A stretch of 11,431 nucleotides of DNA from contig JAEOUG010000185.1 in the NCBI GenBank assembly GCA_016839445.1, positions 1 through 11,431 on the forward strand, given 5' to 3'. The notes beneath the pieces were generated by a model. The model was given only the letters and a program-made list of their open reading frames with translations, was not told the origin of the DNA and searched no databases. Shown here in pieces: positions 3 through 11,431 of the stretch. The stretch comes from Candidatus Thorarchaeota archaeon (GTDB taxonomy: Archaea > Asgardarchaeota > Thorarchaeia > Thorarchaeales > Thorarchaeaceae). Numbering within the stretch: the first letter of the stretch is position 1; each line of letters opens with the position of its first letter. The translations under genes were made by a program, and so were the position numbers.

Positions 3-1151
3 AGGTCCGTGTCCGCGTGCATCAACTGTGGCCTCTGCATAAGCCACTGTCCAGTGGTCGGTGCAGTTGGTCTTGAGAAGTTCAGCGGTCCAAGAAGCAT
101 CGCTGTCGAGCTGAGCCGTTCCCCACCAGAATTCTGGTCCACTGCCGACATCGTCTATCTGTGCACTGGTTGCGGGACCTGTCGCGAGGTTTGCCCGAAA
201 AACGTCGACATTCCAGAGGTTGTGAATCTTGTTCGAGCCAGGATATTCCAGCATCGTCCTGATCTTGTTCCCAAGGCGCTTCATCTTGTTCGAGAGACCC
301 TCCACGAACACAGTCTTGCCTTCGAACCATGGGACGACCTGGAGGAGAAACAGGAGAGTCGAGACGTGCGGCTGGAGCGACTGCAAATCCCTCTTGTAGC
401 AGATCGAGTGAAGAAGGGTGCAGAGGTCCTATTCTACCCTGGTTGTCAGGCTGAAGAGCGGGCGCAAGAGGTTCGTGAGGCGGCGAAGGTGATTCTGGAT
501 TACTTCGATGTTGACTTCACACTACTTGAGAACATGACATGCTGTAGCCTTCCAGCTCGACTCGTAGGTGACGACAAGACAGCTCGCGACCTCTCTCAGA
601 AACTGAAGACGGATGTCAAGGGCCTTGGTGTCAAGATGGTTGTCACTACGTGTGCAGGCTGCACAGGAAACCTATCGCATCTGGTAGAGCGCGACCACTG
701 GGGTATCCCTGCCCTGCACATGCTCGAATTCATGAGGAATGAAATAGGGCTGGACCGGCTCAGAGAGGCGTTGAAGAAGGGGCCGAAGTACAGTGATGTG
801 ACGGTCACGGTACATGATCCCTGTCACCTCATACGTCATGCATCTCGCAGCATCATGGACTACGCTGCAGAGCTTCTATCTGTCATTCCCGGGGTCACCG
901 TGAAGGTGTCCGAAGCTCACGACTCGTGTTGCGGAGGCGGCGGTCTGGTCTCTTATCATGCGCGTAATGCTGCGGATGCAGTGGTCTCTGAGAACCTAAA
1001 GGCAATAGAGAAGACAGGCGCAGAGCGTCTGGTGACTCCTTGTCCTCTTTGCACTGCCCAGATAGAGAGCAATCTCTTCAAGAGCGGCAGTTCAGTGGAG
1101 GTTGACGACCTGACAGTCTTCATCGCCCGTCGACTACCGCGGAAGGAGTAG
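3..1151 (+). CDS. HdrD/GlpC-like (Fe-S)-binding oxidoreductase subunit (2x[4Fe-4S] plus two CCG domains), probably 5'-truncated by the window edge
   Basis: Ferredoxin motifs CINCGLCISHCP and CTGCGTCREVCP. CCG-domain motifs YPGC, TCCS (CCG variant), CAGC, HDPCH, CCGGGG and CPLC. The frame is open back to position 3 and the track's GTG at 9 is only 3 codons before the first Cys, so the true start is likely upstream. Confidence 0.9.
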   Translation, partial: RSVSACINCGLCISHCPVVGAVGLEKFSGPRSIAVELSRSPPEFWSTADIVYLCTGCGTCREVCPKNVDIPEVVNLVRARIFQHRPDLVPKALHLVRETLHEHSLAFEPWDDLEEKQESRDVRLERLQIPLVADRVKKGAEVLFYPGCQAEERAQEVREAAKVILDYFDVDFTLLENMTCCSLPARLVGDDKTARDLSQKLKTDVKGLGVKMVVTTCAGCTGNLSHLVERDHWGIPALHMLEFMRNEIGLDRLREALKKGPKYSDVTVTVHDPCHLIRHASRSIMDYAAELLSVIPGVTVKVSEAHDSCCGGGGLVSYHARNAADAVVSENLKAIEKTGAERLVTPCPLCTAQIESNLFKSGSSVEVDDLTVFIARRLPRKE

Positions 1152-1158
1152 ATGTCAC

Positions 1159-2586
1159 TTGCTTGATGATAAGGTGAAGAAACTCGCACTCAAAAGACTC
1201 GTCAAGATTGTTGGTCCGGAGTATGTCCAAGATCAGGAAACCGACCTGATCTTGAACGCCCATGATGCATGGCCTCTGGCGCAGGCGAAGATACGGGCAG
1301 GGGAAGTCCTTCCTGTTGCAGACCTAGTTGTCTTTCCAGAAACGACTGAGCAGGTTTCCGAGGTCCTCGGTGTGGCCAACGAGATGGAGATACCTGTGAC
1401 GCCAGTGGGTGGCGGTGCAGGAACCTGTGGCGGCACGGTTCCACTCTACGGCGGCATCCAGCTGGACCTGAAGAGGATGTGCAGAATCCACGACATCGAC
1501 CACCAGTCAATGACGGTGCGCGTTCAATGTGGCGTGATAGGAATCGATCTTGAGGAAGCTGTGAACAGAGAAGGATACACGACAGGACACACTCCCACTT
1601 CCCTTAGATCATCCAACGTTGGTGGCTTCATTGCCACACGTTCTGGAGGATCCAGGTCCTCTCTCTACGGCAAGATTGAGGACCTCACTCTTGGCTTGCA
1701 GGTCGTTCTTCCGGATGGCTCCATAGTAGAGTGCAAGGCGGTACCTCGTCATTCAGTGGGTCCTGACCTCAAACAGCTATTCATCGGCTCAGAAGGAACG
1801 CTTGGAATCATCACTGAGGCTACTCTCCGCCTCTTTCCCATTCCTGAGTCCCGCCGGTTTCGAGCCTACACCTTTGCAGATGTCCACAGTGGCCTTGAGG
1901 CCATCAGGCTCATCTTCAGAGCTGGCATCAAACCCTCCATTGCCAGGCTATACGATCCCGAGGATGCGTCGTACAGCTTCTCGATGCACTTCGAGTTCGA
2001 AGAGGGCCACTGTATGCTCCTTCTAGCATTCGATGGGCCTCCGGAGAGAGTCAACCTCGATGAGCGTACGTCTCACGAGATATGTCTACAAGAAGGAGGA
2101 TTTGACCAAGGAGAGGGCCCGTCTCGAAGATGGTGGGACCATCGTTACGACATGTACTACCCCACGAGTCTGACTACAAGCGGGTACGCAATTGTCGACA
2201 CGATTGACATAGTGGCAACCTATGACAAGCTGGAGCAGGTGTACATCGCAATGAAGGAGGCGATGGAGGCACACGCTGGGTTTGTAATCTCTCACTTCTC
2301 ACACATGTACGAGAACGGTGGCAGTATCTACATGATCTTCTACACCTCCCAGCCCGACGCGGATGCTGCTTGGAAGAACTACAAGGCAATCTGGGACGCA
2401 GGGGTAGAGGCGTGTCTTGAGCTCGGAGGCACAATGAGTCACCAGCATGGAGTCGGCGTCACTAGGAGTACATACACCGAAGACGAACTCGGCTCAAGCT
2501 TCGCAGTTCTGAAGGCCATAAAGAGCGTATTGGACCCGAAGGGTATCATGAATCCTGGAAAGCTCGGCTTGGGGGTGAGAAACTGA
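1159..2586 (+). CDS. FAD-binding oxidoreductase, VAO/PCMH family, alkyldihydroxyacetonephosphate synthase (AGPS/ADPS)-like
   Basis: FAD-binding segments VVFPETTEQV, PVGGGAG, GHTPTS..SNVGGFIATRSGG..S.LYGKIEDL, GPDLKQLFIGSEGTLGIITEATLRL and C-terminal LDPKGIMNPGKL. It has the ADPS-type motifs SIARLYD, SHFSHMY.NGGSIY and GGTMSHQHGVG rather than the GlcD-type GEHG. TTG start with GGAG at 1145-1148. Confidence 0.88.
   Translation: MLDDKVKKLALKRLVKIVGPEYVQDQETDLILNAHDAWPLAQAKIRAGEVLPVADLVVFPETTEQVSEVLGVANEMEIPVTPVGGGAGTCGGTVPLYGGIQLDLKRMCRIHDIDHQSMTVRVQCGVIGIDLEEAVNREGYTTGHTPTSLRSSNVGGFIATRSGGSRSSLYGKIEDLTLGLQVVLPDGSIVECKAVPRHSVGPDLKQLFIGSEGTLGIITEATLRLFPIPESRRFRAYTFADVHSGLEAIRLIFRAGIKPSIARLYDPEDASYSFSMHFEFEEGHCMLLLAFDGPPERVNLDERTSHEICLQEGGFDQGEGPSRRWWDHRYDMYYPTSLTTSGYAIVDTIDIVATYDKLEQVYIAMKEAMEAHAGFVISHFSHMYENGGSIYMIFYTSQPDADAAWKNYKAIWDAGVEACLELGGTMSHQHGVGVTRSTYTEDELGSSFAVLKAIKSVLDPKGIMNPGKLGLGVRN
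2574..2578 (+). promoter_or_regulatory. Shine-Dalgarno site (GGTGA) for the 2586 gene, with TGATG stop/start overlap (translational coupling)
   Basis: GGTGA lies 7 nt upstream of the ATG at 2586, which overlaps the TGA at 2584-2586. Confidence 0.65.
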
Positions 2587-3707
2587 TGGATGCCGAGAAG
2601 CTGGCTGAGGATGTCAGAATGTGTGCGGCCTGCTCTAAGATGTGCAGACATGTCTGCCCCACGTTCTTCGCCTGGAGAAGTGACTCTCCTACTCCCCATG
2701 GAAGGGCTCTCCTCATCCACCAAGAGATTACAGGTGCCCGAGAGATAGACGCGCGTGGCATCGAAGTGCTATACCAGTGCTTGGAGTGCAGTCATTGCCT
2801 GACCTGGTGCAAACCCGAGATTGACATCGCAACTATCGTGGAGGAGCGTCGACGAGAGATTGTGGCAGCGGAGCAGAGACCTGATGGCCTCCTGAAGATG
2901 GCTGAAGCAATTCGAAAGGACAAGAATCCGTTTGGCGAGCCCCATGCGCAGCGTAGCAACTGGATTCAGAGAACGGAGAGCAAGAATCCTCCGCTTCTCT
3001 ATTTCACAGGCTGCACTGCGGCCTACAGAGAGAAGGACATCGCAGAGAGCAGTGTGGCTATTCTTCAATCCCTAGGTTACTCTGTAATGGTTTCTCCAGA
3101 TGAGGTCTGTTGCGGCTCCCCGCTCTTCCGGACTGGTGACGACACTACAGGTCGTGAATGCGCTGAGGCAAACGCAGATGTCTTGAACAGCCTTGAGGCG
3201 AAAGAGATCATCGTGACTTGCCCAGGGTGTTTCCGCGCCCTGACAGACGACTACTCCCGGCTGGGAGTCGAGCTCAACAAACCCGTTCGTCATATCAGTC
3301 AGCTGTTGACCGAGCATCTCGATGATTTGCCGAGCCTCTCTGATGCTGGTCCTGTCACCTATCACGATCCGTGCCACTTGGGCAGGCACAGCCAGATATT
3401 CGACGAGCCTCGACGAGTGATTGAACGCATGGCCGGCAGGGAGATATCAGAGATGGAAAGGAATCGTGAGAATGCCAGCTGCTGCGGGAATGGTGCGGGC
3501 TTGCGCACTCTGTTTCCCGAACAGGCGAAGATCATTGGTTCAGAGCGGATTGCACATGCGCTACTCACTGGAGCTCGATATCTCATTACAGCTTGTCCCT
3601 TCTGCAAGAATATGCTCTCTTCACAGGCGCCAGATGAGTTGAGAGTACTGGATCTGCCGGAGCTCTTCTTGGAATGTGAAAAGAGTTCTGACACCAAGAG
3701 TGATTAG
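2586..3707 (+). CDS. HdrD/GlpC-like (Fe-S)-binding oxidoreductase subunit (4Fe-4S dicluster plus two CCG domains)
   Basis: CAACSKMCRHVCP and CLECSHCLTWC, NPFGE, YFTGC, EVCCG, CPGC, YHDPCHLGR, CCGNGAG and ACPFC motifs. Confidence 0.92.
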   Translation: MDAEKLAEDVRMCAACSKMCRHVCPTFFAWRSDSPTPHGRALLIHQEITGAREIDARGIEVLYQCLECSHCLTWCKPEIDIATIVEERRREIVAAEQRPDGLLKMAEAIRKDKNPFGEPHAQRSNWIQRTESKNPPLLYFTGCTAAYREKDIAESSVAILQSLGYSVMVSPDEVCCGSPLFRTGDDTTGRECAEANADVLNSLEAKEIIVTCPGCFRALTDDYSRLGVELNKPVRHISQLLTEHLDDLPSLSDAGPVTYHDPCHLGRHSQIFDEPRRVIERMAGREISEMERNRENASCCGNGAGLRTLFPEQAKIIGSERIAHALLTGARYLITACPFCKNMLSSQAPDELRVLDLPELFLECEKSSDTKSD

Positions 3708-3731
3708 CAAAGACTGAGAAGGTAAGACCAT

Positions 3732-4844
3732 ATGGACGCTGAAGAACTACTAGCGCTCAAGATTCGGCTCTTGACACAGGGAGCTACTCTGCCTGAGAAC
3801 GAGTGGCCGGGACGGCGTGGGGGTGCTGGTCCTGTCGGGGGTCGCTACTTCCTACTACCGAACGGGAGAGCCTGCGGTGTTCCCGTAAGGACTGGTGAAT
3901 CTGCTAGAATCTACAACTCAGCCCCGCTCGAACCGACCGACAGGAAGGATGTGTGGCTCTACGACGGGGCAGTAGAGCTTCGCATGATACCCCGTCCGAG
4001 ATTCTACGACCTTGAAACCAAAGAGGGCGTTCCATATCACAAGATTGCGCTCCTGCATGGCGAGAGCACACTGGCAACTACCGTCTTTCAGGCGTGTAGA
4101 TATTGGTCTCATGGAACACAGTGCAAGTTCTGCACTATCCCAATGTCCGCACATAGCGGAGACTCTATTCTTGAGAAGGCCCCGGAGCAGATCTCGGAGG
4201 TTGTAGAGGCAGCAGAGAAGGAGGGTGTGATTAGCGATGTCCTCCTGACAACAGGTACGCCGGAAACCCCCGACATGGGAGCAGAACGACTGGTCCGTAT
4301 CATTGAGTCAATCAGGAAGGTCAGCAAGGTACCCATAGGTGTCCAATTCGAGCCCCCTTCAGATGAATTGATGATTAAGAGAGTTGCAGACGCAGGCGCA
4401 AGTGCAGTTGGAATCCACATCGAGAGTGCCGATGAGTCGGTAAGAGAAGAGATGTGTCCCGGGAAGCATCAGTACGGTCCCTTGGACCTCTACAAGAGGA
4501 GCTGGCAATATGCGTTGGATCTGTTCGGCCGCGGAAACGTCAGCACCTTCATACTACATGGGCTTGGTGAGTCTCTTGAGAAGACGCTGGCGATAACTGA
4601 TGAGCTGGCGGAGGTGGGTGTGTTGCCGGTTGTCGCGCCTGTTCGCCCGGCCAAAGGCAGCCAGCTATCTGATTATGTGCCTACTTATGTCGGGCATCTT
4701 GATCGCTCACTCGATTTCTACAAGGAAGTTGGCAGAATCCTGTTCAGGCATGGACTTGATCCCTCGAGAACTGCGGCCGGCTGTCACAGGTGTGGGGGTT
4801 GCACACCTGACCAAGAGGCATACGACTGGGCGGCTCGCCAGTGA
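3732..4844 (+). CDS. Radical SAM protein, MSMEG_0568/NitD-like family
   Basis: N-terminal GRRGGAGP (3810-3833), PRFYDL.T.EGVPY.KIALLHG...LATTV.Q.C, expanded CX8CX2C motif CRYWSHGTQCKFC (4095-4133), LLTTGTP, QFEPP, and C-terminal AGCHRCGGC (4782-4802). All are recalled as characteristic of this family. Confidence 0.85.
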   Translation: MDAEELLALKIRLLTQGATLPENEWPGRRGGAGPVGGRYFLLPNGRACGVPVRTGESARIYNSAPLEPTDRKDVWLYDGAVELRMIPRPRFYDLETKEGVPYHKIALLHGESTLATTVFQACRYWSHGTQCKFCTIPMSAHSGDSILEKAPEQISEVVEAAEKEGVISDVLLTTGTPETPDMGAERLVRIIESIRKVSKVPIGVQFEPPSDELMIKRVADAGASAVGIHIESADESVREEMCPGKHQYGPLDLYKRSWQYALDLFGRGNVSTFILHGLGESLEKTLAITDELAEVGVLPVVAPVRPAKGSQLSDYVPTYVGHLDRSLDFYKEVGRILFRHGLDPSRTAAGCHRCGGCTPDQEAYDWAARQ

Positions 4845-4858
4845 ACGGCTACCCGATA

Positions 4859-4867
4859 GATTATAGT
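4859..4867 (+). promoter_or_regulatory. Putative archaeal TATA box for a leaderless or near-leaderless GNAT transcript
   Basis: GATTATAGT is the only TATA-like element in the 48-bp spacer and lies about 26 nt upstream of the ATG at 4893. There is no convincing SD. Confidence 0.4.
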
Positions 4868-4892
4868 GTGGCTCACGTGATGCATCTGCACC

Positions 4893-5402
4893 ATGTCTGA
4901 CCTTCCTCCTGAAGAAATACGCATCATCGAGTTTGGAGAGGAGGACGCGGAAGAGATCTCAGAGTTGCTTCATCAGGTCTGGCCCTTGGCCACTGATTAC
5001 CCAGAGCACTGGCGGGCTATGAGGATGTACTCCCCAGAGGAGATTGTCGAGGATATGAGGAATGGCTACCACTACTTCGGTAGCCGTCTGCAGGGTGAGA
5101 TTGTGGGAGTGTACAAAGCCATCGTCACTGACAAGGGCCTCTACGGAGAGCATCAGACGGTGCGACCTGAGTGCAGGGCCACGGGCCTTGCATCCGCCAT
5201 GTACATTCAGTTTGCCGAGTTTGGTCGGCAGCACGGATGCAAGAGGAATTACTGCAACATTCTGGTGGGGCAGGAGGTAGGAGAGCGTCTGATGAAGCGC
5301 TTCGGTTTTCGGCCTTGGGGTGATCCATACGAGCAATCTGAGGGTATGTTTGTTCAGCTCTATGAGCGGCCTCTGGAAGAGTCCTCTCCGAAAGACCTTT
5401 AG
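4893..5402 (+). CDS. GNAT family N-acetyltransferase
   Basis: 169 aa with GNAT topology: IRIIEF.EEDAEEISELL, GEIVG, acetyl-CoA motif A TVRPECRATGLASAM, and the late motif RLMKRFGF. Confidence 0.85.
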   Translation: MSDLPPEEIRIIEFGEEDAEEISELLHQVWPLATDYPEHWRAMRMYSPEEIVEDMRNGYHYFGSRLQGEIVGVYKAIVTDKGLYGEHQTVRPECRATGLASAMYIQFAEFGRQHGCKRNYCNILVGQEVGERLMKRFGFRPWGDPYEQSEGMFVQLYERPLEESSPKDL

Positions 5403-5438
5403 ATAGCTCAATGTGCCGCGAAGTACCGAGGCTATGCA

Positions 5439-7106
5439 ATGGAGATATTCCCAATCCTTGTTGATGGCGAAGAAGTCGATACAGGACGACACATTCCATT
5501 CCCGGACATGGAACGGGTGACCGAAGAACCGGGGTTGGCGATTGCGCTTCAGATGAGAGAGGCTTCCTCATTCTCACGCTTCGTGTTCCAGCGAGCCCCC
5601 TCACTCATTCCTAAGAACGATCCGAACATGAGGTACCTAAGGGACTATCGCAAGTATCATGGTGTTCCGAAGTTCTCCAATGACGAGATAGACGAAACAG
5701 TCTATGCCAGAGTCTCTCTTGCGCGAGAAGAGGACATAGAACGAGCCATTGCAGCAGGAACACGTGACCATCACAAGCTCTACAATCCCCTCAAGCTCCC
5801 TGGGATGGGCGCTACTCTAGATGAACGCGCAGATGCTCTCTATGAGGCAAGCGTCATGCTGAAGAAGCGTTGGGAGGAATTCAAAGAGATCTCGATTAAG
5901 GAGGGGATGCCCATTGGCACACTCAAGTGGGCGTGGGATTTGGGAGCGTGGAGTGACTATCGCACATCGGTTGATGAATGGGGCAAGCTCCTAGAAGTCG
6001 AGGAAGATCCTGGGCTTGACGGAGGCAAGACATACAGGTTCAGAGAGCCCTATGGCATAGCCGCCCTTTTTCCTCCTTACAACGCACCCATCGCCTTGGG
6101 GATATTCAGCATCACTTCCTCGATACTGGCCGGGAACTCCACGATTCTAAAGCCCCCAAACAAGGTTCCTCTAAGCACAATCTGGTTGGGCAGATCCTAT
6201 CATAGAGCGTTTATGGACAAGGGTCTTCCCCCTTCACTCATCCAGGTTCTCACGGGCGGAGGAGTCAAGATGATGAACCGCTTCATGTCAGACTCGCGCG
6301 TCGGCGCTGTGGTCTGGTACGGCGACAGTGACGTTGGGATCAAGTTGTGGTCCGAGGCTGTCGCGCGCAGAGTCCAGATGGCCCCCGAACTGGCTGGAAG
6401 CGATGCCTGCGTTGTGTGGGGTCGAGACGTGGACCTTCACAAGGCCGCCAAGGGAATCGCTAGAGGACGTCTTCTCGGCGCAGGGCAGGCCTGCCTGTCT
6501 ATTAAGCGACTCCTTGTGCAAGACTCATTGTATGATGACCTCCTACCGCTGCTTGTTGAAGAGATGGAGACGCACAAGGTTGGCCTACCATCAGACCCCG
6601 AAGTCACACTCCCTCCTGTGGGGATAACTCCACTCTATCTCCTTATCGACCAGATGGAGGACGCAGTAGGCAAGGGCGCCAGGGTTGAGACCGGTGGCTA
6701 CCGCATGAACTACCTCGCCGAACCGGATCCCGCGGGAATCTTCTACAAACCTACCATTGTGACCAACGTATCGCTCGACATGCGACTAATGCAGGAAGAG
6801 GTGTTTGCCCCAGCGCTTCCTGTGTATCCGATTAAGACGCTTGATGAAGCCATTGCAGTGGCCAACAACTCGCGCTTCGGGTTGAGGTCGAGCATCATCA
6901 CTAGAGACCTCTCCGCCCGGCAGCGGTGGGTGAAGGAAGTTGAGGCGGCTGGTGTCTTGACAGGCGAGGACCATCTCTACTACGATCCCTACATGCCTCA
7001 CCTCGGCGGATACAAGGACTCGGGAATCATCGGTGCCAAGTACTTCACTACGATGCTTACACGCATGAAGTACGTGCACACTGGACGGGACGACCCGATT
7101 GTCTAG
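5439..7106 (+). CDS. Aldehyde dehydrogenase family protein (divergent, with N-terminal insertion)
   Basis: REPYG, PPYNAP (oxyanion Asn), AGNSTILKP, ELAGSD (general-base Glu), GQAC (nucleophile Cys), EEVFAP, ANNSRFGL and GGYKDSG. Confidence 0.92.
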   Translation: MEIFPILVDGEEVDTGRHIPFPDMERVTEEPGLAIALQMREASSFSRFVFQRAPSLIPKNDPNMRYLRDYRKYHGVPKFSNDEIDETVYARVSLAREEDIERAIAAGTRDHHKLYNPLKLPGMGATLDERADALYEASVMLKKRWEEFKEISIKEGMPIGTLKWAWDLGAWSDYRTSVDEWGKLLEVEEDPGLDGGKTYRFREPYGIAALFPPYNAPIALGIFSITSSILAGNSTILKPPNKVPLSTIWLGRSYHRAFMDKGLPPSLIQVLTGGGVKMMNRFMSDSRVGAVVWYGDSDVGIKLWSEAVARRVQMAPELAGSDACVVWGRDVDLHKAAKGIARGRLLGAGQACLSIKRLLVQDSLYDDLLPLLVEEMETHKVGLPSDPEVTLPPVGITPLYLLIDQMEDAVGKGARVETGGYRMNYLAEPDPAGIFYKPTIVTNVSLDMRLMQEEVFAPALPVYPIKTLDEAIAVANNSRFGLRSSIITRDLSARQRWVKEVEAAGVLTGEDHLYYDPYMPHLGGYKDSGIIGAKYFTTMLTRMKYVHTGRDDPIV

Positions 7107-7153: not shown

Positions 7154-8524
7154 ATGAGGAAAGAACAAGCAGAGGCGATTGAAGAAAGCCGTGCTCTCAG
7201 GCGAAGGGCCGTCACAGCTCTGAACGAAGCCAGTATCCGATCCGGAACGCCGCTAAGAGCAGTGATTCGTGAGATGCAGACCGCGTCACCAGACTCTGTC
7301 GAATCAACAAGTGCCTCAGGACAGCTCGCCCTCTCGGTCATGCGGCACAGAAACACGATAGACTACCTGACCCAGCGAGTGACGAGGAGTAATGACATTG
7401 GTCAGTCCGCCACGAACGCTCTTCGGCTTGCAGTCTACGAAGCTCTCTGGCTCAATGTTCCACCGGCCCGCCTCATGCGATACTACTCAGAGTGGTTGGA
7501 CCCGTGGAGTAACGCAGTTAATGAAGCACTTGCAGAGAACCTTGATGACCTGCCAGAGAAGATGCCACTCGTCAATCGTCTGAGTCTTACTCTGTCACAC
7601 CCAACCTTCTTGGTGCAGACTCTACTTGATAACATGAAGAGAGAGGATGCGGTTGGTCTTATGCGTGCGTTGAACGGCCCAAGGCGGTACTACGTTCGAC
7701 CCAACCGGCTACAAGGTGGGGGAGCAAGTGGAGGAATGCCTCTCTCGCAGGCAACACAACTCCATCTCGACAAGTACTCCGCTGCCCCTGTAGTGCTTGA
7801 GCAGGACCCAACGATACCACACATCTGGGAGGTGAAGGAAGGGATTCATCACCTAATCGGTTCTCAGGGGTTCAAGGCCGGTGAAGTCATAGTCCAAGAC
7901 AAGGCGAGCGTCCTTGCTGTTGACTCGCTTTGCGCCGATGTGGGAGATAGAGTCTGGGACGCCTGTGCAGCACCGGGCATGAAGACTCAGCTACTGGCTG
8001 AGAGGGTAGGCCCAGACGGCGTGGTCATTGCATCCGACATCTACGAGTCGCGAATTCACATGGCACGACAAGAGAGTGCCAGATTAGGAGCCACGCAAGT
8101 TCAATGGATACGGGCTGACGCCTCCTCACCGGCCGTATCTGAGGCTGACAAGATCCTGATTGATGCTCCATGCACTTCCACAGGAGTGCTGCAGACGTAT
8201 CCCTCTTTCAAATGGAGGTTGAACAAGAAAACCCTGTTTGCGCTCATGACTGTCCAGAACAAGATCCTTGATGGCATTCTCACGCGCTTCTCTGAGAGGC
8301 CCGGAACTGAGATTGTCTATTCCACATGCTCGATTCTTCCACACGAGGGTGAGTCACAGGTCGACTCGGCGCTGTCGCGTCATAATGTTGAGCTTCTTGA
8401 ACCAGCAGTTCCAGGCAGTACTGGCTATCCTGGCTTTGCATGCTCTCCGAAGGTCCGTAGGCTGTTTCCCCACATTCATGGGTGCAATGGCTTCTTCATT
8501 GCCAGACTCAGGGTCATGCAGTAA
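7154..8524 (+). CDS. RsmB/NOP2 (Fmu/NOL1) family RNA cytosine-C5 methyltransferase with a NusB-like N-terminal region
   Basis: SHP.FLV, VRPN.L, VQDKAS, VWDACAAPGMKT, ILIDAPCTSTG (motif IV PC), YSTCS (motif VI TC) and RLFPH.HGCNGFFIARL. NALRLAVYE is a NusB-like helix. The start codon is uncertain. Confidence 0.93.
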   Translation: MRKEQAEAIEESRALRRRAVTALNEASIRSGTPLRAVIREMQTASPDSVESTSASGQLALSVMRHRNTIDYLTQRVTRSNDIGQSATNALRLAVYEALWLNVPPARLMRYYSEWLDPWSNAVNEALAENLDDLPEKMPLVNRLSLTLSHPTFLVQTLLDNMKREDAVGLMRALNGPRRYYVRPNRLQGGGASGGMPLSQATQLHLDKYSAAPVVLEQDPTIPHIWEVKEGIHHLIGSQGFKAGEVIVQDKASVLAVDSLCADVGDRVWDACAAPGMKTQLLAERVGPDGVVIASDIYESRIHMARQESARLGATQVQWIRADASSPAVSEADKILIDAPCTSTGVLQTYPSFKWRLNKKTLFALMTVQNKILDGILTRFSERPGTEIVYSTCSILPHEGESQVDSALSRHNVELLEPAVPGSTGYPGFACSPKVRRLFPHIHGCNGFFIARLRVMQ

Positions 8525-9452
8525 TCCTTCTCTCCACTGACTCCATGACTCGTCTGGCGAATTCGCGGTCATCCTTGAATGACCATGGGATGCCAAGGAA
8601 CATCTTGTTGGCGCTGACCATGAGGTTCTGGTCTCTGGTGACGAGTATCTTGAAGATCAGCTTGGTCCACTCAAAACAAGGGTGTTCGTTGAACGTCTGG
8701 CTGTTCTGTGGCTTTGACGCGATGGACTTGAGATAGTCCATTCCCTGTTTGGGCCTCCCCAGCATCAGGTCTGATAGGGCCCCCATGCACGCCAGAATCA
8801 CGGAGTTCTTGACCATCCCTGAATCGATGTAGTTCTGCGCTCCCTCCTTATACTCACTAGCCTTCTTCTCGTACAGTGCCCTGCCATGGCTAATGATGAG
8901 GTCCCTTGTATCATCCTTCTTATCGGTCCTCTTCAGCGAAACGCCGCCCAGAACTGCCGCCTTGAGCTCTGATTGCATGTCGGTGATAGGAGCATCCTTG
9001 TTCAGTTTGCGCATTCTCTCAACGATGGACCGTCCTGCCCTCACAAGTTCCTGCTTCACTCTTGGACCATTGAGTGACGAATCTCCTCTTTCGAGCCCAT
9101 TCTCATAGGCAACCCTTGCGGATCTGAAGAAGTCGTAAGCTCTCTCTGTGAGGTCGTTCTTGTTGGCGAAGTTGATGGCCTTGATGTAGGCATTGATTGC
9201 GTTATCGGTCTCTCCTAGGTTGGCAAACTGGCTTGCTGACTCAATGAGCCAGGGGAATGCGTCGGTGCTGTTCTTGTCCAGTGCATCTTGGCCCCTGGCC
9301 AGTGAGCTGTATGCATCAACACAAATGGTTGCCACGTCTGGATGGAAGCACTTCGTGTCAGCTTCTCCATTGGGTACAGCCTGCCCCCTAAGTCTGCAGT
9401 AGTGTTTCGAATCCTCCTGCTTGTACCATGAGCACTTGTCTGACACCGGCAT
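8514..9452 (-). CDS. Uncharacterised alpha-helical repeat (TPR/alpha-SNAP-like) protein with a Cys/His-rich N-terminus and an internal WH2-like motif
   Basis: About 312 aa. GGTGA SD (9460-9464, minus strand) 7 nt before the ATG at 9452 favours that start over TTG 9458. TPR-like helices such as ESASQFANLGETDNAINAYIKA are present. The stop overlaps the convergent RsmB gene by 11 bp. The CDS is well supported but the domain calls are by eye. Confidence 0.8.
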   Translation of the reverse strand: MPVSDKCSWYKQEDSKHYCRLRGQAVPNGEADTKCFHPDVATICVDAYSSLARGQDALDKNSTDAFPWLIESASQFANLGETDNAINAYIKAINFANKNDLTERAYDFFRSARVAYENGLERGDSSLNGPRVKQELVRAGRSIVERMRKLNKDAPITDMQSELKAAVLGGVSLKRTDKKDDTRDLIISHGRALYEKKASEYKEGAQNYIDSGMVKNSVILACMGALSDLMLGRPKQGMDYLKSIASKPQNSQTFNEHPCFEWTKLIFKILVTRDQNLMVSANKMFLGIPWSFKDDREFARRVMESVERRITA

Positions 9453-9495
9453 GACCAAATCACCAGTAGGGCTGGCACTCTACATTCTCGCAGGC

Positions 9496-9533: not shown

Positions 9534-9567
9534 TGCTCTCTAGACCGGTTTGGCCCGAGGTCCTCAG

Positions 9568-9969
9568 GTGACAGACGACGACACTGAACTCGCCATGATT
9601 CGAAGAAAGAAGATGGCTGAGATAGTGGCACGTGAGAAGCAAGCACAGGCCCAGAAGGAAAAGCAGGCCAAGTCCAATGTTGAGAGAGAGAAGCTCCTGA
9701 CGCGTTTCCTGGCGCCTGATGCGCTGAAGTACCTCGCCAATGTGAAGGAGAAAGAGCCCGGCGTTGGTCGGCGTCTAGAGGACACAATCCTATACCTGAT
9801 TGTGTACCGTGGAATACGTGAGATGTTCTCACAACTCGATGTGATGTACATTGAGCGACAGATAAAGGGTGAGGGACCGAAGATACGTATTCAGAGAGAC
9901 GGTGAAACCTCAGATTTCGGCGAGTATGTGAAAGAAGCCATCAAGGAGAGCAATAGCAAGACCGAGTGA
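9568..9969 (+). CDS. PDCD5/TFAR19-like (dsDNA_bind family) protein, divergent
   Basis: DDDTELAMIRRKKMAE matches the PDCD5 N-terminal D.EL..IR..K..E helix. It is followed by a Q/K-rich linker, LL..FL.PDA...L..V....P, LE..IL.L and a C-terminal basic strand KIRIQR. GTG 9568, with GAGG 7 nt upstream, is preferred over TTG 9550. Confidence 0.75.
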   Translation: MTDDDTELAMIRRKKMAEIVAREKQAQAQKEKQAKSNVEREKLLTRFLAPDALKYLANVKEKEPGVGRRLEDTILYLIVYRGIREMFSQLDVMYIERQIKGEGPKIRIQRDGETSDFGEYVKEAIKESNSKTE

Positions 9970-10872
9970 TTAGCTTAGTGATCGAGCTCTTGACGCCCAC
10001 TCTCTAACCGTGTACCTCAGGTTCTCTGGGTTATCCTGCTGCTTTCTCCAGTGGTCAGCAGTCCTTCTCATCTGGAATATCAGCGCGCCTCCGCGTGCCA
10101 GTTTCTGTTCGAGAATATCTGCCGACGCCTCAAGTGCTCTCACTATTGTGTCCTGGTCATCCGTGAGCCCCACGAACTCCTCCAACTGGTCGAAGACACC
10201 CATCGGCTCAAGACTTGCCCATTTCTCCTTCGGAACTTCGAGGTGCCGATACTTGCCGCCAGGAATCAAAGTGCTGTCGTTCCTGATTTCGACTTCTCCT
10301 GCCATCTCTAACTCATCCACTAGTACCTTTGCTTCGCCGACACTCATCGCAACTACTGTCGCGAGTTCATCGAGTCTTACGGACTTCCGTCCTAGTATTG
10401 TGCTCAACATTCGGTACTTCGGATTCCCGACTTCTTGCAGGACTCTGCCTAGTGCTTCGAGAGACCCCTCTTCTCCGTTGATGAGCCTAGTAGCGGCTTC
10501 TGAGAATCGCTCCAGATCCTTACGGAGGCTCTCTATTGTGAGCCTTGCAGTGGATAGATCCTCCCTCATTGTCGTGTCTTCTGTTGCTGGCTTCTTCTTG
10601 TTCATCTCTTGTGTCTGCTCGGCTCGGATTCCCTGCATCTCCCGCCCGACGGACTCAAGGGCTGCCTTTGCTCTTGCAAGCTCTCCCCTCAGGAGCTCGT
10701 TCTCCGCCTGCTTCTCCCTCACCTCGGCATCCAAGGACGCGATTCTCTCATTGAACTGGGCAGCTCTTCTCTGCGCCCCTTCAATCTGCGCTTGGAGTGC
10801 CTCTATCTTCTGGTTCAGAGACACAATCTGGATTGTCTTTTCCCGAATTCTCTCCTGTACGTCGTCAGACAT
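9970..10872 (-). CDS. Uncharacterised 300-aa protein: N-terminal coiled coil, central winged helix-turn-helix-like domain, C-terminal helical bundle
   Basis: Starts at MSDDVQERIREK (ATG 10872); the longer track ORF overlaps TatD. Heptad pattern spans about aa 5-130. PKYRMLSTIL.RKSVRLDELA....MSVGEAKVLVDELEMAGEVEI is wHTH-like. The stop abuts the convergent PDCD5 stop with a 0-bp gap. Confidence 0.8.
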   Translation of the reverse strand: MSDDVQERIREKTIQIVSLNQKIEALQAQIEGAQRRAAQFNERIASLDAEVREKQAENELLRGELARAKAALESVGREMQGIRAEQTQEMNKKKPATEDTTMREDLSTARLTIESLRKDLERFSEAATRLINGEEGSLEALGRVLQEVGNPKYRMLSTILGRKSVRLDELATVVAMSVGEAKVLVDELEMAGEVEIRNDSTLIPGGKYRHLEVPKEKWASLEPMGVFDQLEEFVGLTDDQDTIVRALEASADILEQKLARGGALIFQMRRTADHWRKQQDNPENLRYTVREWASRARSLS

Positions 10873-10903
10873 CAAGGTTCCCGCGTGACGCCCATACAGA
10901 TGA

Positions 10904-10912
10904 CAATTAAAG
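10904..10912. promoter_or_regulatory. Putative shared (bidirectional) TATA-like element between the coiled-coil gene and tatD
   Basis: CAATTAAAG reads ATTAAAG on plus and CTTTAATTG on minus. It is the only AT-rich tract in the 80-bp divergent spacer. Confidence 0.4.
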
Positions 10913-10952
10913 GAGTCTCGTCTGTCCCTGCCTGCAAAGGGAGAGAGGCGTC

Positions 10953-11431
10953 TTGCGGCTATTCGATGCGCACACACACATTGACATGAAGCACTTCCAG
11001 AACGATCGGGACCGTGTAATAGAGAGGGCAAGGCAGAGAGGCCTGGTCGGCATGGTGAGTTCGTCCATAGGATCTGGCTCATTTCGCCGCACACTTGGGA
11101 TAGTGTCAAAGCAGAAGGGGTTCATTCATCATTCAGCTGGTTGCTCGGTTTCTCAGCTGACTGCAGACGAGGCAGAGAAAATCATCGCACTTACTCGAAA
11201 ATACTCCGATGATGTCGTAGCTGTAGGGGAGGTGGGCTTAGACTACCACTGGGTCAAGGATGCCAGAGGAAGAGCAGCGCAGGAACCCCTATTCAGGCAG
11301 TTCATAGAGCTTGCCATGGAACTCGAGAAGCCGATTGTCATTCACTCGAGGAAGTCGGAGCAGGAGGCATGTTCAATCCTTGAGAGCACCTACAGCGGTG
11401 ATGTCCTGATGCATTGCTTCGACGGTCCGAA
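10953..11431 (+). CDS. tatD: TatD family metal-dependent hydrolase/DNase, 3'-truncated by the window edge (absent from the ORF track)
   Basis: Manual translation from TTG 10953: MRLFDAHTHID...RDRVIERARQRG...VVAVGEVGLDYHW...QEPLFRQFIELAMELEKPIVIHSRKSE...VLMHCFDG. This contains the DxHxH, GExGLD, HxR and HCF TatD motifs. GAGG lies upstream. Confidence 0.93.
   Translation, partial: MRLFDAHTHIDMKHFQNDRDRVIERARQRGLVGMVSSSIGSGSFRRTLGIVSKQKGFIHHSAGCSVSQLTADEAEKIIALTRKYSDDVVAVGEVGLDYHWVKDARGRAAQEPLFRQFIELAMELEKPIVIHSRKSEQEACSILESTYSGDVLMHCFDGP

Follow-up and report, generated by a model that had tools for sequence, protein, structure and literature searches.

The window analysed here, an 11,431-nucleotide stretch of DNA (contig JAEOUG010000185.1 of the Candidatus Thorarchaeota archaeon assembly GCA_016839445.1), carries on its minus strand a gene for a 314-residue protein whose middle holds a short sequence resembling the actin-binding WH2 motif. 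We found that this sequence is a real, functional and strongly selected short linear motif, placed in the linker of a SNAP/TPR-like scaffold. Capture of monomeric actin, in the manner of WH2 or of the GAB motif of VASP, appears as the best single hypothesis for what the motif does; we hold it tentatively, and binding is putative. The motif was first pointed out in a sequence-only reading of the window. Residues 160–178 are DMQSELKAAVLGGVSLKRT and map exactly to nucleotides 8981–8925 of the minus strand, with KDAPIT directly before and DKKDD directly after, so that the coordinates, sequence and flanks given in that reading were all exact against the open reading frame (ORF) at 8514–9458.

The evidence for selection comes from orthologues. 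A word-indexed sequence search returned 227 homologues, and an exhaustive phmmer search of 1.84 billion cluster representatives (clusters at 50% identity) returned 11 matches at E ≤ 1e-3. Taking one genome per species, we collected 65 related loci, nearly all titled Thorarchaeota, with 32–79% identity over the best aligned segment; 61 of them gave the full-length sequences used for conservation. Over these 61 orthologues residues 159–178 have a mean column entropy of 0.86 bits, against 2.32 bits for residues 146–158, 2.49 bits for residues 179–185 and 1.36 bits for the whole protein. This is the pattern that the sequence-only reading had predicted, a kept motif between drifting flanks, and it answers the worry voiced there that the match might be due to chance, as the motif forms an island of conservation and not a chance string. 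The linker downstream also differs in length among orthologues, with indels in the alignments. E164, K166, G172 and L175 are invariant and K176 is conserved at 90%, while the core Q-A-E-L-K-A-x-x-L-x-G-x-x-L-[KR]-[KR]-x is kept in 65/65 loci. The tetrapeptide fits L[KR][KR][ATV] in 58 of the 61 orthologues, the exceptions being LQKV, LKRP and LKPA. LKKA is the most frequent form (28), followed by LKKT (10), LKRV and LKKV (5 each) and LRKA and LKRA (4 each); LKRT, LRKV and the three exceptions were seen once each. The pattern written down in the sequence-only reading matched a single protein, the target itself, in the crude host proteome of 2662 ORFs, with 0.05 matches expected from shuffles, a count of little weight since that pattern was composed after the sequence had been seen.

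One explanation to be weighed is that the motif has no specific function and owes its conservation simply to that of the entire protein in a single young clade. The orthologues are 44–77% identical overall, with one at 32%, so part of the conservation is shared ancestry. This explanation is nevertheless very improbable, given the entropy of the flanks (2.3–2.5 bits against 0.86 for the motif) and the persistence of the E-L core and the glycine in other families at about 12–24% overall identity.

Predicted structures place the motif outside the folded parts of the protein. The full-length AlphaFold2 model, built on a 43-sequence alignment with a mean per-residue confidence (pLDDT) of 84, has helices up to residue 152, a short helix at residues 160–170 in a block of pLDDT 64–70, a stretch below 50 at residues 172–191 and a confident second helical domain at residues 191–313. 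A second model, of residues 146–314 alone, was built on a 46-sequence alignment that includes distant lineages. There the C-terminal domain (C-domain) reaches pLDDT 93–97 and residues 146–190 are all below 50; the motif is therefore without confident docking on its own C-domain. The motif is thus predicted, as is required of WH2, to be disordered when free and to lie outside a folded domain. The flexible insert between two helical blocks proposed earlier agrees with the low confidence of residues 172–191. The sequence-only reading had also named burial in the helical fold as a finding that would speak against it; in both models the LKK part is predicted to be disordered, not buried.

The scaffold is predicted to be a two-domain TPR/SNAP-like helical adaptor joined by a flexible linker. 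By structural alignment it is neither gelsolin- nor profilin-like, as had been supposed from the sequence. Foldseek found nothing in the PDB at E ≤ 1e-3 for the whole model or for the C-domain module, its E-values being 1.6e-3 or worse. With Z values that lie within the range helical repeats reach by common architecture, an exhaustive aligner matched the whole model best to Sec17/alpha-SNAP (Z 13.9), gamma-SNAP (11.9) and Get4 (11.6), the C-domain best to residues 172–290 of Sec17 (Z 12.8, root-mean-square deviation 2.7 Å over 117 residues) and the first three helices of the C-domain to MIT domains (Z 9.0), with gamma-SNAP, a proteasome lid subunit and Get4 ranking after Sec17; the N-terminal domain (N-domain) matched the TPR domain of LGN (Z 12.6 over 120 residues, deviation 3.6) and Pins (Z 12.3) in VIA-align. 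The nearest neighbours in a protein language model are SNAP clusters (0.82–0.87).

Profile matches of the scaffold are weak. The TPR families stay below their cut-offs (TPR_11 at E=0.042 on residues 79–101; TPR_8 in 13 of 43 family members, best E=0.025), as do Vps35 (33 of the 43), MIT (13), SNAP (6) and GET4 (1). For SNAP (PF14938), the six members matched at E ≤ 10 (best E=0.021) fall short of the gathering threshold, and the window protein is unmatched. A Vps35 reading (best E=3.6e-5, below cut-off) was set aside as generic alpha-solenoid similarity. In SNAP proteins an N-terminal twisted sheet made of helical hairpins is joined to a C-terminal helical bundle. The TPR-like alpha-solenoid adaptors Sec17/alpha-SNAP, gamma-SNAP and Get4 are close to the target in size, at about 290–310 residues. 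SNAP and Get4 are without a disordered mid-protein linker bearing an LKK motif and without a four-cysteine hairpin, whereas the target has both.

Relatives outside Thorarchaeota were sought with a profile across 400 genomes of the phylum, 104 of which gave matches; we label the families from f1, the host's own, onward. Full-length copies occur in 73/85 genomes of f1, in the single genome of f2 (1/1) and in f31, and a long form in 3/5 f30 genomes. Matches covering only the motif region and the C-domain were found in f6 (4/4), f11 (16/22) and f32. Twenty distant places were taken and their ORFs inspected, among them twelve f11 proteins of 242–326 residues as open frames. None of the twelve has a TPR domain. 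They begin with a polybasic segment (PF-KKKKKK) followed by proline-rich repeats (GPP[KR], LPPPPP), with 17–33% proline in the 100 residues upstream of the motif and proline runs of 3–5. Directly before the homologous C-domain stands the element D-[ED]-I-[HL]-x-E-[LM]-[RK]-x-x-x-F-G-x-x-[LM]-x-K-[AVT]-P (example of motif and C-domain, L097:1006-1500). Eight of the twelve fit [LM][KRA]K[VAT], and the other four, subgroup A, carry LEAV, LEHV or LHST; the f11 proteins (loci L088-L099) thus divide into a subgroup A without KK and a subgroup B with M[KR]K[VAT]. In a shorter paralogue from f30, a Cys-rich N-terminus is followed by FLEELL...LKKM and then by PPPPP.

In a cross-lineage alignment of 46 sequences conservation reaches at least 90% at the E and the L of the helix, equal to that of the best-kept positions of the C-domain. 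Judged from these sequences, the motif is ancestral to the motif-plus-C-domain module and older than the Thorarchaeota TPR domain. The order of basic, proline-rich and motif segments in the relatives recalls, by analogy, the layouts of WASP/WAVE and Ena/VASP, in which a basic and a Pro-rich region precede WH2 (PMC3034019). As a separate observation, the full-length f30 homologues (L083, L084; 392–399 residues) have lost LKK and carry an acidic insert of about 80 residues, rich in Thr, Glu and Val, between the domains.

These relatives bear on a second explanation, in which the helix is the protein's own structural or regulatory part, either the last helix of the TPR array or a fold-back latch, with Gly-Gly-LKK as its hinge. 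Helices 132–152 and 160–170 can be read as a third TPR-like hairpin, both faces of the short helix are conserved, and its pLDDT of 64–70 in the full-length model falls below 50 in the module that lacks the N-domain. Many TPR structural alignments reach residues 171–178 and several run through them, which puts the AlphaFold2 helix roughly at the position of the next TPR helix and to that extent also speaks against an actin-binding motif. However, the motif precedes the C-domain in f11 proteins, where a TPR domain is missing, and so must be more than a TPR capping helix; the helix is likewise conserved in f6 and f32 proteins without the TPR N-domain. The module model also shows no confident docking of the helix on the shared C-domain, and neither the loop before the helix nor the linker behind it is constant in sequence or length. 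Packing is a poor explanation for an invariant Leu with two basic residues where pLDDT is under 50. We regard a purely structural or regulatory role as unlikely.

The fit of the motif to WH2 can be examined position by position. The WASP-family pattern is [VILM][LM]xx[IL] followed by [KRQ], with an amphipathic helix that presents three large hydrophobics (PMC3298513), and the tetrapeptide tested here is L-[KR]-[KR]-[VTA] after a linker of 4–10 residues containing a hydrophobic residue. The window protein has LKRT after G-G-V-S. Two of the three hydrophobic helix positions are present in either of two registers, position 2 being Q162 or K166. In the register of the sequence-only reading (L165...V169, with the four-residue linker G-G-V-S and its expected hydrophobic) 8 of 10 pattern positions fit by hand. 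In a register that starts from M161 and is suggested by f11 (M161-Q-A-E-L165-K166, an 8-residue linker, LKK[ATV]) 9 of 10 do.

Several results weigh against actin as the partner. Pfam WH2 (PF02205) gave no match at E ≤ 10 to the whole protein, to a 39-residue piece or to this place in the host genome, and the WH2 profile scan that the sequence-only reading had proposed as a check failed in the orthologues too: the hidden Markov model (HMM) lands on the motif in 17 orthologue-bearing genomes, at model positions 10–26, with 12.4–17.4 bits against a cut-off of 23.1. When the 43 family members were scanned, 34 Pfam families matched, and WH2 is absent from the 25 of them that were listed; it also matches 0/12 distant homologues, and in a six-frame scan at E ≤ 1 none of 400 Asgard genomes exceeded 23.1 bits. 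An unrelated conserved ORF of about 740 residues scores higher on the same HMM, up to 19.5 bits, so scores of this level arise by chance and are not evidence. The strict WASP-family pattern has no match in the 2662 crude host ORFs, target included; one or two of its positions are broken by the motif. Q162, E164 and K166, the polar residues of the helix, do not vary, which is not needed in a one-sided WH2 helix, and LKK is absent in all four f11 subgroup A proteins and in f6 (2), f32 (1), f31 (1) and the long f30 forms (2). No actin, gelsolin or profilin gene lies in the 65 related loci, where the conserved neighbours are RNA and DNA housekeeping genes. Against the G-actin-binding peptides of Dictyostelium GAB, WIP and thymosin-beta4 the target ranks only 1577th, 1070th and 1223rd of 2662 host ORFs, and judged by sequence similarity alone it is within background.

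Other searches of this kind were set aside. The top WH2-HMM matches in f11, the ~740-residue coiled-coil ORF just mentioned (L110:400-2601, with equivalents in nine f11 genomes), cover model positions 4–19 in a seemingly folded region; we judged them chance matches, useful as a negative control. The sole WH2-HMM match in the host genome (contig C119, 12.7 bits), a 613-residue membrane alpha/beta-hydrolase-like ORF, was also judged to be chance. An ELM-style WH2 expression matched the motif in 56/61 orthologues and also 888/2662 host ORFs (1481 matches, with 1767 in shuffles), and is uninformative. PDB sequence searches returned only designed helical repeat proteins with the motif segment (E 0.0015–0.16) and a best E of 0.11 with the family profile, no chain of a WH2 protein or actin binder appearing in either. 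PIP-box, MIM1 and RPEL readings of the helix, made by eye from consensus sequences, fail at key positions that misfit or are unconserved in f11.

The fourth validated peptide gives a different picture. Human VASP GAB, which like the other three was taken from G-actin assays (PMC3034019), is the most similar to the target, which ranks 19 of 2662 host ORFs against it, and this likeness rests on 5 identities in 14 positions. Its own binding to G-actin is weak, with a dissociation constant of 10.3 uM (PMC3034019). Human VASP GAB departs from the pattern at the two positions where the target does and still binds actin, so failure of the strict pattern does not exclude binding. As in Ena/VASP GAB, a degenerate WH2-like element that is without the second hydrophobic and without the basic residue after the key Ile/Leu (PMC3034019), the target departs from the canonical form; VASP GAB also stands between a Pro-rich region upstream and an oligomerising helical part downstream, an arrangement similar to that of the f11 homologues. 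Unlike in Ena/VASP, we detected in the target neither an EVH1 domain nor a FAB motif nor a coiled-coil tetramerisation domain.

Compared with WH2 of WASP/WAVE, WIP and thymosin-beta4, the target shares a length of about 20 residues, predicted disorder, a short amphipathic helix with a conserved Leu then Lys/Arg, a linker that contains Gly and a hydrophobic residue, and a following L-[KR]-[KR]-[ATV], in a host that has a eukaryote-like actin. It differs in remaining below the Pfam cut-off, in having Gln or Lys at the second hydrophobic helix position and in its invariant polar helix residues. Unlike the usual WH2, it also lies between two folded helical domains, in an archaeon, with actin binding hypothetical.

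The host does have the partner that an actin-binding motif needs. Absence of actin was another finding named beforehand as refuting; a true actin of 379 residues is present, with 440.6 bits to Pfam Actin and 59% identity to fish cytoplasmic actin. Its segments LYASGRTTG and SVWIGGSIL.SL.TFQ.MW are near-identical to those of animal actin, and we take these to form the cleft in which WH2 helices are bound. The contig of the actin gene (C182) also carries, about 13 kb away, a two-domain gelsolin of 198 residues (L120:1129-1725), and a single-domain gelsolin is encoded elsewhere in the genome. Pfam Profilin found none in the host and was silent in 14/14 control genomes too, so the scan is uninformative on absence. 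The two-domain gelsolin has LKSV between its domains, at the site of LRRV, LKHV and LVDV in published Asgard gelsolins, where this central motif contacts actin in crystal structures (PMC9433394). The target shares with it an L-basic-basic-V/T tetrapeptide in an Asgard protein. The gelsolin tetrapeptide, unlike that of the target, comes after a gelsolin domain, and it is the long helix of this domain that occupies the actin cleft; without a gelsolin fold, the free helix of the target would have to fill it.

The case for actin draws on the shape of the motif, the actin of the host, the precedent of Asgard gelsolins with their LKKT-type contacts and the proline-rich segments beside the motif in relatives. 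From these we infer both the partner and the geometry of binding, whereas the motif, its conservation, its predicted disorder, the host actin and the module common to other Asgard lineages are results of the analysis. The exposed motif is made up of an amphipathic helix (MQAELKAAVL) followed by a Gly-Gly turn and an L-K-K-[A/T/V] in extended form. In the proposed mechanism the Leu of LKK would sit in an adjacent actin pocket, the two basic residues would point toward the acidic patch of subdomain 1, and the bound actin would be tethered or oriented by the two helical domains, or linked through them to another partner.

Table 1. Features of the gene and of its surroundings; coordinates are those of the window unless a locus is named.
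Feature	Coordinates	Strand	Evidence or remark
Whole gene, Thorarchaeota member of a small Asgard-only family	8514..9458	(-)	314-residue ORF
N-terminal beta-hairpin region with four conserved cysteines (C9, C21, C37, C46)	9321..9434	(-)	AlphaFold2 and alignment
N-terminal TPR-like helical domain, helices from residue 40 to 152	9003..9341	(-)	AlphaFold2 pLDDT 85-95
Variable upstream linker, residues 153-158	8985..9002	(-)	entropy 2.32 bits over residues 146-158
Motif helix, residues 160-170 (DMQSELKAAVL)	8949..8981	(-)	AlphaFold2 helix; E164-L165-K166 core kept in all superfamily lineages
Gly-Gly linker and LKRT tetrapeptide, residues 171-178	8925..8948	(-)	LKKT-like half of the motif; pLDDT below 50
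Variable charged downstream linker, residues 179-185 (DKKDDTR)	8904..8924	(-)	entropy 2.49 bits
C-terminal helical domain, residues 186-314, module common to distant homologues	8517..8903	(-)	AlphaFold2 pLDDT 93-97
Convergent neighbour, RsmB/F-type RNA methyltransferase with NusB-like N-terminus	7154..8524	(+)	Pfam Methyltr_RsmB-F E=1.1e-41
Divergent neighbour, PDCD5-type dsDNA-binding protein	9550..9969	(+)	Pfam dsDNA_bind E=1.3e-8
Arf-family GTPase gene beside f11 subgroup A	L100:7237-7911, L103:7430-8011, L104:7360-8049 (also L089-L092)

The gene and its parts are listed in Table 1. The listed start is a TTG at 9458; the ATG two codons downstream, at 9452, is the likelier true start, as it aligns with the start of most homologues, and would give a protein of 312 residues with the numbering shifted by 2. 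In the N-terminal hairpin region AlphaFold2 places strands at residues 12–15, 18–21 and 26–28 with pLDDT above 90. Its four cysteines are invariant in 40 sequences and present too in the full-length forms of f30 and f31, and the hairpin may be a metal site, for zinc or iron.

An RsmB/F-type gene adjoins the target gene in 64/65 related loci, and in the window the two 3' ends overlap by 11 nucleotides (8514–8524). On the other side a PDCD5-type gene adjoins in 60/65 loci, across an intergenic gap of 91 bp. Beyond these flanking genes follow TatD (53/65 loci) and a coiled-coil protein (45/65 loci). The latter corresponds in the window to a coiled-coil-rich ORF at 9970-11109 on the minus strand, conserved beside the PDCD5-type gene; its 276-residue C-terminal part has no Pfam match, and the N-terminal extension of the listed 379-residue ORF looks like an over-extension. 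A same-strand run at 9-7106 (+) encodes a CCG/4Fe-4S protein, an FAD-linked oxidase, a second CCG protein, a radical SAM protein, a GNAT acetyltransferase and an aldehyde dehydrogenase, and parts of it are syntenic in 14–50 of the 65 loci.

In f11, subgroup A genes lie tail-to-tail with an Arf-family GTPase gene in 4/4 loci (Pfam Arf, 161–168 bits). A set of CYTH, RsmB/F and PUA genes begins on the other side of the subgroup A gene in two of the three extended loci (L100, L103), with one gene intervening in L104; RsmB/F genes are nearby in 3/3 of these loci, and HDAC, CYTH and PUA (UPF0113) genes also lie in the vicinity. Subgroup B genes adjoin a DUF123 gene. An Arf GTPase is reported to co-precipitate with Lokiactin (bioRxiv 10.1101/2025.11.30.690169), which is a loose link.

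A third explanation is that the motif docks a partner other than actin, such as a small GTPase, an AAA+ ATPase, as for SNAP proteins, or an RNA-processing factor, and that the resemblance to WH2 is coincidental. The Arf-family gene beside subgroup A would fit a GTPase, and RsmB/F genes stand near homologues both in Thorarchaeota and in subgroup A. The analogues of the scaffold, Sec17/alpha-SNAP, Get4 and MIT domains, are all peptide- or helix-binding adaptors. Conservation and disorder equally fit any partner and do not single out actin, the WH2-HMM scores and peptide similarity are at background level, and a loose resemblance to WH2 is cheap, as the hits of the ELM-style expression across a large share of the host ORFs illustrate. 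On the other hand, no specific alternative partner was supported by any test, the neighbouring genes are convergent or divergent and not co-transcribed with the target gene, and the proline-rich tracts beside the motif in two other lineages fit actin assembly better. We consider another partner a serious possibility, though a rather doubtful one.

The hypothesis of actin capture extends to the family as a whole. The target may be the Thorarchaeota member of an ancient Asgard-wide actin-assembly family that combines a WH2/GAB-like motif with a SNAP-like helical domain, an extension that we rate as somewhat unlikely. If it is true, the f11 proteins, with a polybasic membrane-binding tip, profilin-type proline repeats and the motif, would follow the logic of WASP/WAVE and Ena/VASP, and that logic would predate eukaryotes, existing in archaea alongside gelsolins and profilins.

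The eukaryote-like actin of Asgard archaea is thought to be regulated mainly by profilins and gelsolins (bioRxiv 10.1101/2025.11.30.690169). In the accessible texts covered by our literature search, to which subscription-only papers and supplements did not belong, WH2-like elements of Asgard archaea appear only as the gelsolin tetrapeptides, polyproline motifs are mentioned in general only, and the present family is described nowhere. If the motif does bind actin, archaeal actin-binding proteins would gain a third class, in which a WH2-like motif stands free in a new scaffold, and the relatives with polybasic and proline-rich regions would place the origin of WH2-based monomer delivery before eukaryogenesis. 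Even with a partner other than actin, the family is a clean case from archaea of a short linear motif conserved within a disordered linker.

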